From the IMG/VR virus record IMGVR_UViG_3300005805_000064, positions 21,268 to 85,267 of that record: a stretch of 64,000 bases of DNA. One strand, written 5' to 3'. The stretch's first letter is position 1. Each line of letters opens with the position of its first letter. Under the pieces are notes generated by a model. That model saw only the letters and a list, made by a program, of their open reading frames with translations, was not told the origin of the DNA and did no database searches. Source of the stretch: a virus (Duplodnaviria; Caudoviricetes). Made by a program: the position numbers and the translations under genes. Shown here one piece after another: positions 62,330 to 63,876 of the stretch.

Positions 62330-63876
62330 TACCAGATGCCTCCACCTGCTTGCTTGACCCCATTCAACAACTTACCGCTAGCATAATCTTGTAAACTAAA
62401 TCTGTTGCTGATATCATATCTACTTACGATCGGTACGGCGCTGATGCTAATATTAATCTTAGTAGGCACATATGTAGGGTCTTTAGTCCCGGGAGGTATA
62501 GAACTATTAAATCCACCGCCACCGCTATTTCCGCCGAAAGTAGGACCTGATAATTTACCACCGGGTATCAATGTGTTTAAAATATTTTTTGCTGTACCGC
62601 CCAACTTACTAACAGCATTTTGAATCAATCTATCTTTTACAGCATCAAAAGGATTAGATTTTTTTGATTTTTTAGTGTCACCGGAAGGTGATCTACTTTG
62701 ACCAGGTGATAATGTCAATGCTCCTGCTCTTATGTAATCAACATCTGTAGGCAAATTATATGTAAAATTAGTTATTGCTAGTGGATGGGCGTTGAACTGA
62801 AACTCACCCAATCCAAACAAATAACATAGTGGAGGAGGTGTTCCCGGTTTTGGAAACTCATCTTGTCCATAAAACATTTTAGTCACACTGCGGAAAAAGT
62901 GTATCACTGCCAATACATAATTTGCCTCTTCTGTATCCTGTGCAGTGAAATCGCATGTTATAGTTACGCTATCTACCGAACTACTTTCATATTGAAAAAT
63001 CTTGTAATTACTATGTGCCGGCATTACAGAACCATATTGTGCGCCATATGTCACATTGATACTAGGTGTATATGGAAATATGACCCCGTCAGTGCCCTGC
63101 AAGGGTGCAAGTATGCCCGGATTATCAGAATAGTAAAGATACTTTGCTTGCTGCGCACCCGGGCTTAACGCTAATCTTACGCGCCAATCTTTACGCTGTT
63201 TGAAATTTGTTGTGTCCTGTAAAGTAGCCTGCGCTCTTGTTTTCTTAACATCACCTGATAGACCTCTGTTCGTATTGCTTGCGCTAGGATCCGTGGCTCT
63301 TTTGCCTGTTACTGATACTTCTTCTAATCCATCTTTAGCGCCAGGGTCAGATGCAGGATCGATCTTTTCTGGACTTCTTTTGCCTGTGACTGATACTTCT
63401 TCTAAGCCGTCTCCGGGAACATCGTTTGGATCTATCTTTTCGGGTGTTTTCTTGCCTGTAACAGAGACTTCTTCAAGCGAATCGAGATCGTCCTGCTTCT
63501 TTTGTGCAGCGGCATCTTCTGCTTCTTGCTTTTTATCTTCTGCGTCAGTAATGGCATCATTAACATCGGCTTCAGCTTCGCCCACTTTGCTTTCTAGGTC
63601 TTCGGCGCGGTTTAGCAAAGACAAAAACTTGTCTGCTTGCCCCGTACAGCCCGCATCATCAGCCGCGTACTCTAATTTTGCTATCTCACTTATTAATGTG
63701 CCTAGTTGCCTACTGTAATCATCAAGTCGGCGAACTGCGGCTTCGGCACCTGCTATATCCAACCTTGCAGCCTTGGACATACCATCTGATTTAGTGCTAT
63801 CAACTGAACCGTTGATAGCATTGAATGTGTTTAGATGATTTTGATATAAAATATCAAATTTTGAGCAATCTGCCAT
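62329..63876 (-). CDS. Tail-tube initiator/baseplate hub-associated protein (gp48/gp54-like C-domain) with N-terminal coiled coil and 3x LEEVSVTGK repeats
   Basis: C-terminal GVIFPYTPSINV...ITCDFTAQDTEEANYVLAVIHFFRSVTKMFYG...PPPLCYLFGLG...AITNFTYNLP is a tube-fold-like domain, and the gene lies upstream of the gp53-like gene. Confidence 0.65.
   Translation of the reverse strand: MADCSKFDILYQNHLNTFNAINGSVDSTKSDGMSKAARLDIAGAEAAVRRLDDYSRQLGTLISEIAKLEYAADDAGCTGQADKFLSLLNRAEDLESKVGEAEADVNDAITDAEDKKQEAEDAAAQKKQDDLDSLEEVSVTGKKTPEKIDPNDVPGDGLEEVSVTGKRSPEKIDPASDPGAKDGLEEVSVTGKRATDPSASNTNRGLSGDVKKTRAQATLQDTTNFKQRKDWRVRLALSPGAQQAKYLYYSDNPGILAPLQGTDGVIFPYTPSINVTYGAQYGSVMPAHSNYKIFQYESSSVDSVTITCDFTAQDTEEANYVLAVIHFFRSVTKMFYGQDEFPKPGTPPPLCYLFGLGEFQFNAHPLAITNFTYNLPTDVDYIRAGALTLSPGQSRSPSGDTKKSKKSNPFDAVKDRLIQNAVSKLGGTAKNILNTLIPGGKLSGPTFGGNSGGGGFNSSIPPGTKDPTYVPTKINISISAVPIVSRYDISNRFSLQDYASGKLLNGVKQAGGGIW
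63295..63485 (-). repeat. Three intragenic repeats (72-78 bp) encoding D(S/G)LEEVSVTGK(K/R)
   Basis: Copies at about 63451-63483, 63379-63411 and 63298-63333. Confidence 0.9.

Follow-up and report, generated by a model that had tools for sequence, protein, structure and literature searches.

A Candidate Array of TonB-box Mimics on a Tail-tip Protein of a Giant Uncultured Lake Phage

TonB-dependent transporters of the outer membrane, like the group B colicins, dock onto TonB at its C-terminal domain through an extended strand, the TonB box, and the hijacking of TonB is a textbook mechanism for colicins and pyocins. Among phages, the g3p protein of the filamentous phages offers the example of a virion protein that during entry binds TolA, as the periplasmic domain of an energy-transducing envelope protein. 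The subject of this analysis is a 64-kb stretch of viral DNA (the window), which forms the final part of the 85,267-bp IMG/VR record IMGVR_UViG_3300005805_000064 and in which the gene of a 515-residue, baseplate tube-initiator-like protein encodes three tandem copies of a TonB-box-like motif, LEEVSVTGK[K/R]. Judged by its sequence, this array is a candidate TonB-box mimic used during phage entry, a reading to which a probability of about 0.5 can be attached.

The crossing of the periplasm by tailed phages, and the need of some injections for an energized membrane, are still poorly understood. Infection by phages T1, phi80, and H8 needs both TonB and the proton-motive force (PMC11658791), and some bacteriocins that carry TonB boxes in unstructured N termini, namely KlebC and colicins 5 and 10, reach TonB via channels other than TonB-dependent transporters (PMC11658791). 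If a phage carried a TonB box on its own tail tip, the virion would be linked directly to the force-transducing motor of the host.

The first-pass annotation of this DNA had placed three tandem motifs, separated by linkers rich in Pro and Asp, within positions 63295-63485, and all three are present with their cores inside that interval. The protein reads DSLEEVSVTGKK at residues 132-143 and DGLEEVSVTGKR at residues 156-167 and again at residues 182-193 (motif peptides DGLEEVSVTGKRSP and DGLEEVSVTGKRSPEK), and the spacers between the copies, TPEKIDPNDVPG and SPEKIDPASDPGAK, have the Pro/Asp-rich character described. A six-frame scan of the whole 85-kb record detected the motif in no other open reading frame (ORF). 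A looser match, IEDVNVTA, lies inside a single 6288-residue ORF at window positions 33286-52152, downstream of the baseplate wedge genes, and is probably due to chance. Within the 515-residue protein itself, the core strand SSVDSVTITCDFTA of the tube-fold domain (window positions ~62950-63000, residues ~297-311) matches a loose TonB-box regular expression, as it does in many homologues; being structural and buried, this strand has to be discounted in motif scans as a false positive.

The likeness of the motif to genuine TonB boxes was evaluated both by exact matching and by a weight matrix. A degenerate DNA scan for L-E-E-V-x-V-T-G-K-[R/S] over the bacterial genomes of 185,579 species (596 Gb) returned 45 matches where ~9 were expected by the analysis's own arithmetic. 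Thirty of the 39 matched ORFs of at least 150 residues have a Pfam Plug domain and 28 of the 39 an N-terminal CarboxypepD_reg domain, and in the matched transporters the 10-mer lies between these two domains. This pre-Plug site is also that of the validated TonB box of the SusC-like transporter Bt1763, in which deletion or alanine substitution of 81-VDEVVV-86 abolishes function (PMC7782687). Three further matches, from deltaproteobacterial metagenome-assembled genomes (MAGs; L006, L023, and L035), fall in the conserved N terminus of phosphoglycerate kinase, which reads LEEVPVTGKRVF, and are coincidental.

The weight matrix was built from 92 unique phage instances only, in a 12-mer and an 8-mer core version, and was applied to 30 transporters chosen irrespective of the motif from a Sulfuricella MAG, Arcicella aurantiaca, and a Verrucomicrobiota MAG. 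Its top match fell 11-34 residues (mostly 11-19) ahead of the start of the Plug domain in 18 of the 30 proteins with the 12-mer and in 22 with the 8-mer, as compared with a chance rate of ~5.5% per protein (binomial P 9e-16 and 6e-22, respectively). The proposed TonB-box resemblance therefore holds under both types of test, by which the phage motif cannot be told apart from real TonB boxes. The core of PROSITE pattern PS00430, which had been suggested as a means of recognizing the motif, is not matched, failing at position 2 where the phage motif has E in place of S/T. This pattern was rejected as a criterion, because nearly all of the real transporters tested fail it too: it misses 28 of the 30 independent transporters and, among the 39 exact-match ORFs (30 of them transporters), 38.

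Natural variation was used to examine selection on the motif. Compared with copies 2 and 3 over the 10-mer, copy 1 shows 5 synonymous and 1 nonsynonymous codon differences, and these synonymous differences among copies imply that the repeats are not a fresh DNA duplication. The motif stretch is found in lake and freshwater metagenomes from at least three studies other than the likely source study, and in the contigs of four such runs the interval 63200-63600 contains 40 variants, 34 synonymous and 6 nonsynonymous. Inside the motifs the synonymous and nonsynonymous counts are 7/0 for copy 1, 2/0 for copy 2, and 1/0 for copy 3, a total of 10/0. The motif peptide is under purifying selection. That the repeats form a neutral linker without any specific partner, as might be supposed from the many relatives that manage without the motif, is very unlikely on these selection data, and it accords poorly both with the synonymous differences between copies and with the near-invariance of the ten motif positions across homologues of 40-95% identity in which the linkers vary, as well as with the independent origin of the motif in five protein families.

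Two further observations from the metagenomic contigs concern the same region. In run X5, one joint skips 92 bases (63239 to 63332); it was considered as copy-number variation and not used, since 92 is not a multiple of three and only one contig shows it. Other contigs, such as one of 7.5 kb in run X6, match only the 37-base segment 63297-63333 and diverge in both flanks, as seen in three of the freshwater runs; the same motif coding is thus present in other genes of co-occurring phages.

The motif is not confined to the protein in the window. The DNA pattern of the motif occurs at 21 IMG/VR loci in five different protein families. Two of these are gp5-like spike families (phrog_430 at ~1e-80; Gp5_OB), one with the motif after the β-helix and the other with the motif also as its very C terminus, …TTLEEVKVTGKRTTPNTSGG. 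The remaining families are hub-slot proteins of phrog_11190 (family C proteins at L054, L056, L063, and L051, with DELEEVVVTGKRV), virion-module proteins of ~830-1115 residues (family A) that have 3-6 copies and weak tape-measure PHROG similarity only, and the tube-initiator family of the 515-residue protein. Among the carriers at the 21 loci, none could be recognized as a protein of the capsid, of replication, or of metabolism. Of the five carrier families, at least four are tail-tip parts that are driven into the envelope when the tail contracts; this is the strongest indirect argument for a periplasmic partner of the motif.

Some of these carriers have features of their own. The spikes that end in …TTLEEVKVTGKRTTPNTSGG (L053, 11783-13429, and L061) are on IMG/VR T4-like contigs, and their C terminus should be the needle tip. 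In family A (L047, 3922-6558; L049, 4139-6619; L065; and L059), the copies read DDLQEIEVTGKRI or DALEEVVVTGKRT at a spacing of ~26-45 residues, and a gene neighboring family A has a weak match to "released upon infection."

A periplasmic partner need not be TonB itself. The motif might instead bind another protein of the periplasm or outer membrane by strand addition, whether TonB paralogue-like, TolA-like, part of outer-membrane protein assembly, a lipoprotein, a protease, or a chaperone, and so anchor the tail tip without receiving force. Disorder of the motif segment, its location on tail-tip carriers, and the selection acting on it fit such periplasmic exposure equally well, the K-R-x-P flank peculiar to the phage copies may confer a further specificity, and g3p sets a precedent by binding TolA. 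This alternative is nonetheless judged quite unlikely, as only TonB is known to recognize this class of sequence and the matrix derived from phage instances falls specifically on the TonB-box site.

Within the family of the 515-residue protein, the motif is unevenly distributed, with 45 of the 121 members having 1-5 copies each. The family logo is [P/G/A]-D-[G/E]-L-E-E-V-[Q/T/S]-V-T-G-K-[R/K]-x-P-[D/E]; spacers are variable, and copies are 14 or 23-26 residues apart. Six homologues (P0048, P0092, P0102, P0107, P0114, and P0118) have an extra copy in the matching disordered loop of the C-terminal domain (C-domain), at anchor+156 to +162. The N-terminal 200-odd residues are mosaic, such that homologues 77-85% identical in the C-domain have unrelated N termini without the motif, and the proteins of 121Q (243 residues) and XaC1 (291 residues) have no N-terminal add-on at all. 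The motif is an accessory module restricted to a clade and does not belong to the core of this protein family. From its disorder, its variable copy number and spacing, and its shift to a second disordered loop, it behaves like a short linear motif that is portable, needs only to be exposed, and serves an outside partner, and not like a structural strand. A second short and conserved motif, N-N-[A/S]-G-T-G-x-P-G-T-A-G, is found in the disordered N-terminal linker of 42 of the 121 members (for example, P0008-P0046), in 25 of these 42 upstream of the TonB-box-like copies; it is absent from the window protein (62329-63876).

These patterns also bear on the possibility that the motif is a virion-internal assembly strand, added to a β-sheet of the hub, the tube lumen, the tape measure, or a chaperone, with its likeness to TonB boxes reflecting the general needs of an amphipathic edge strand. 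All carriers are neighbors in the central hub and tube, and in four of the five motif-bearing jumbo loci the neighboring phrog_11190 protein has the motif too, so that two adjacent hub proteins are carriers, as if sharing a docking code. The D-G...K-R-x-P flanks and polar fifth residue are unlike those of most transporter boxes, and the true structural C-domain strand SSVDSVTITCDFTA is box-like as well. An internal strand is considered unlikely because the motif is wholly absent from close relatives whose C-domains are 77-85% identical, because a copy number that ranges from 0 to 6 and a position that shifts between two disordered regions would be odd for a structural contact, and because in bacteria the exact 10-mer is almost exclusive to the TonB-box sites of transporters. 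The structural model described below likewise shows no packing of the motif segment. As regards an internal partner, phage-encoded TonB_C (PF03544) was found neither in this record nor in five motif-bearing viral records, all of them fragments.

The placement of the motifs in the 515-residue protein was examined with an AlphaFold2 (AF2) model of the full length (mf6e6ff331880), built with 64 homologues, and the predicted layout agrees with the earlier suggestion that the motifs lie between a coiled-coil N terminus and a tube-like C-domain. The N-terminal bundle matched only generic helical-bundle folds. As VIA-align of the full model was dominated by such three-helix bundles, the C-domain was refolded alone, and it then gave as its best match Pvc7 (6j0n_b; Z 10.2, rmsd 4.1, 160 residues), with further matches to Afp7 (6rao_G, Z 9.5), the initiator of cyanophage A-1(L) (8kea_P, Z 9.3), the baseplate of phage P1 (9ay5_G, Z 9.1), and T4 (5iv5_BE, Z 8.4); plain tail tubes and Hcp reached only ~Z 6. 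Foldseek agrees on the tube-initiator match (probability 1.00, E 6e-4). PHROG 12050, "virion structural protein," covers residues 215-383 at 2.5e-41, and matches to the C-terminal part were located by tblastn in jumbo phages of the Rak2/121Q type, in Agrobacterium phage Atu_ph07, and in Xanthomonas phage XaC1, one match to the jumbo phages being labeled "baseplate tail-tube protein." A whole-family profile returned only coiled-coil noise from PDB sequences, and hhalign against T4-like gp48 was negative. On the modeled fold together with gene order, and not by sequence, the protein is assigned to the tube-initiator class that includes T4 gp48/gp54, Pvc7, and Afp7.

The TonB-dependent transporter Plug domain (PF07715) has no match anywhere in the record, Pfam shows no such domain in the 515-residue protein, and the protein is not a transporter. 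Its domains other than the motif linker are the helical bundle and the tube fold, with no bacteriocin receptor-binding or cytotoxic domain. Many family members begin M-A-x-C (the Cys at residue 4; window positions 63865-63876) with another conserved Cys inside the helical bundle (…AGCTGQ…, residue ~77, ~63640-63650); this pair of conserved Cys residues in the N-terminal bundle could be a disulfide or a metal site.

The gene neighborhood is that of a baseplate module, as listed with the other features in Table 1. The order of the genes (the 515-residue protein, gp53-like, phrog_11190, gp5-like hub-lysozyme, gp25-like, and gp6-like) is identical in 121Q, XaC1, and Atu_ph07, and also in a T4-like contig in which the first gene is annotated as a gp48-type "baseplate tail tube cap."

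Table 1. Location and assignment of features in the window and upstream of it (window positions unless marked as record positions; pLDDT, predicted local distance difference test score; aa, residues)
Feature	Positions	Strand	Basis or remark
Gene of the 515-aa baseplate tube-initiator-like protein	62329..63876	-	ORF list, PHROG, tblastn
N-terminal three-helix bundle, aa 5-132	63481..63864	-	AF2 pLDDT ~95
Predicted-disordered 93-residue linker with all three motifs, aa 134-226	63199..63477	-	AF2 pLDDT 32-48
Motif copy 1, LEEVSVTGKK, aa 134-143	63448..63477	-	
Motif copy 2, LEEVSVTGKR, aa 158-167	63376..63405	-	
Motif copy 3, LEEVSVTGKR, aa 184-193	63298..63327	-	
C-terminal tail-tube-fold domain, tube-initiator class (by predicted fold), aa 227-515	62332..63198	-	VIA-align, Foldseek
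Disordered loop within the C-domain, aa 386-464	62485..62721	-	pLDDT <50
gp53-like baseplate wedge gene, 104 aa, next downstream	62015..62329	-	Pfam PF11246 4.2e-06; phrog_7145 9e-21
795-aa virion protein, hub slot, without the motif here	59624..62011	-	phrog_11190
gp5-like baseplate hub and tail lysozyme, 1186 aa, without the motif	56057..59617	-	phrog_13211 7.7e-32
Permuted two-piece transfer-messenger RNA (tmRNA), tag ANDDVYALAA (locus L181)	record 17266-17621		~3.6 kb before the window start

The source of the window is a giant uncultured lake phage. CheckV estimates the completeness of the record at 22%, which for 85,267 bp corresponds to a jumbo phage of roughly 390 kb. The label "T4-like" given in the first-pass annotation is apt for the T4-type baseplate module and does not extend to the phage as a whole, which is Rak2/121Q-like rather than strictly T4-like. 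No tRNA genes were found in the window. The tmRNA upstream of the window matches Rfam beta_tmRNA RF01850 (137.7 bits, E 9e-44) and also RF04321; as this is the betaproteobacterial type, the host is probably Gram-negative with TonB, and it is probably an uncultured betaproteobacterium. A Bacteroidota host was the first guess, as the exact 10-mer was commonest in transporters of that phylum in the bacterial genome scan, and it was dropped because the tmRNA is of the permuted betaproteobacterial type with the tag ANDDVYALAA.

How a TonB-box mimic might serve a phage can be outlined from the predicted architecture. The C-terminal 290 residues of the protein would form the tube-fold ring on the baseplate hub from which the tail tube begins, and the N-terminal 230 residues would be an add-on in which a three-helix bundle sits on a floppy linker of ~90 residues that displays the three motifs. 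Sheath contraction would drive the tube tip and this ring through the outer membrane, leaving the linkers exposed in the periplasm; a hexameric ring would present as many as 18 motifs per virion. Such exposure is suggested by the tube-initiator fold, by gene order, and by the presence of the motif on gp5-like spikes elsewhere. TonB could then bind the motifs by strand addition, and the ExbB-ExbD-TonB motor, driven by the proton-motive force, would pull on the bound linkers. The pull might draw the tube tip toward the inner membrane, or it might remove the helical bundles and so open the tube for exit of the tape measure and DNA; by either route, delivery of DNA would be tied to an energized host. 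A broader generalization, to be held a little more tentatively than the mimicry itself, is that contractile-tailed and probably other phages of Gram-negative bacteria place predicted TonB boxes in multivalent arrays on the proteins of the tail tip, namely on spike, hub, tube initiator, and perhaps tape measure, by which ExbB-ExbD-TonB pulling would be recruited for envelope crossing or tube opening.

The use of such arrays as decoys must also be considered, with the phage soaking up TonB and so blocking the entry of colicins, superinfection by phages that depend on TonB, or the uptake of nutrients. Multivalent arrays would be suited to titration, an option raised in the first-pass annotation, but the protein has no signal peptide and is part of the virion, so that each infecting virion brings only a few copies, newly synthesized protein arises in the cytoplasm and not where the C-terminal domain of TonB lies, and the carriers are always tail-tip parts and not secreted proteins. 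Titration is accordingly given little probability.

Several findings weigh against a role of the motif as a TonB-box mimic. The first concern its distribution. No motif was found in the hub-module proteins of the cultured relatives 121Q, XaC1, and Atu_ph07; 76 of the 121 close homologues and about 74 of 80 related IMG/VR loci lack it, only 5 of these loci having it, so that it is evidently dispensable for such tails. Conservation among orthologues is accordingly mixed, with the motif carried by many and kept by purifying selection, yet absent from most IMG/VR and all cultured relatives. A tblastn search of 50,697 cultured phages with the 81-residue repeat region and with a six-copy family A array gave no motif arrays at E<=1, a search that has weak sensitivity for a motif of 10 residues. 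Others concern the motif itself. Real transporters receive only modest matrix scores (-2 to 12 bits, with one control ORF at 10.7 bits), indicating that the phage motif resembles the consensus box and not the box of any particular gene. The fifth position is Q/T/S in ~80% of phage copies, where transporters mostly have V, A, or I, and the phage copies have their own flanks, D-G before and K-R-x-P after. Moreover, the exact 10-mer is rare in the order of its sole betaproteobacterial match (1/301 genomes), which, given its frequency in Bacteroidota, suggests that the motif was not copied from one obvious host gene. Finally, the N-terminal arm may sit inside the tube, in the hub cavity, or outside.

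Should the TonB-box mimicry be correct, it would add to phage DNA delivery an energy-coupling step that has not been described before, and would be a direct phage counterpart of colicin import. The motif would then also help to determine host range alongside the receptor-binding protein, and it could serve as a sequence marker in predicting hosts, as it implies a Gram-negative host with TonB. Its gain and loss among close relatives suggest an accessory that can be swapped between phages, with bearing on phage engineering and on the reading of metagenomic phage genomes. In keeping with the statement of the first-pass annotation that no TonB box was known from a T4-like baseplate protein, a full-text literature search (with subscription journals outside its coverage) found no TonB box on a phage virion protein. 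What appears new, on sequence grounds, is TonB hijacking placed on a phage tail tip and in multivalent form, whereas TonB hijacking by bacteriocins is known.

Comparison with the known systems illustrates how familiar components may have been combined in a different way. The baseplate tube initiators T4 gp48/gp54, Pvc7, Afp7, and that of A-1(L) share the C-domain fold with the 515-residue protein (Z 8.4-10.2), and the gene likewise stands beside gp53-like, hub, and gp5-like genes; the family profile and hhalign, however, showed no similarity at the level of sequence, and the phage protein adds a mosaic N terminus of ~230 residues (helical bundle plus motif array) while lacking the LysM-type C-terminal domain of Pvc7 and Afp7. 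With the TonB boxes of transporters such as Bt1763 and Escherichia coli BtuB and FhuA, the motif shares the sequence class L-[DE]-E-V-x-V-T-[GA], with its alternating hydrophobic V-x-V, and in both cases the box lies in an extended or disordered segment (on the phage side, by AF2 prediction). Presumably, the V-x-V of the phage motif aligns with the critical BtuB residues L8 and V10. In contrast to the transporters, the phage protein has neither Plug nor barrel and is not in the outer membrane, and in place of a single box it has tandem copies, 3 here and up to 6 elsewhere, with a polar fifth position and phage-specific flanks.

Among phages, g3p differs in using a folded domain, N1, and the Tol system rather than a linear TonB box. 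Phages T1, phi80, and H8 use TonB indirectly, via the TonB box of the receptor FhuA or FepA, and no box on the phage itself is described in that account (PMC11658791). The closest parallel is provided by the group B colicins, the pyocins, klebicin C, and colicins 5 and 10, in which, as is suggested for the phage by sequence likeness, a foreign protein uses a TonB box in an unstructured region to hijack the motor from the periplasm. The carrier in the phage is a structural tail protein instead of a soluble toxin with receptor-binding and killing domains, and the motif is presented in multivalent arrays that a contractile tail would deliver, without threading through a porin or transporter. Even so, the entry of KlebC and of colicins 5 and 10 through non-transporter channels resembles delivery by a phage tube.

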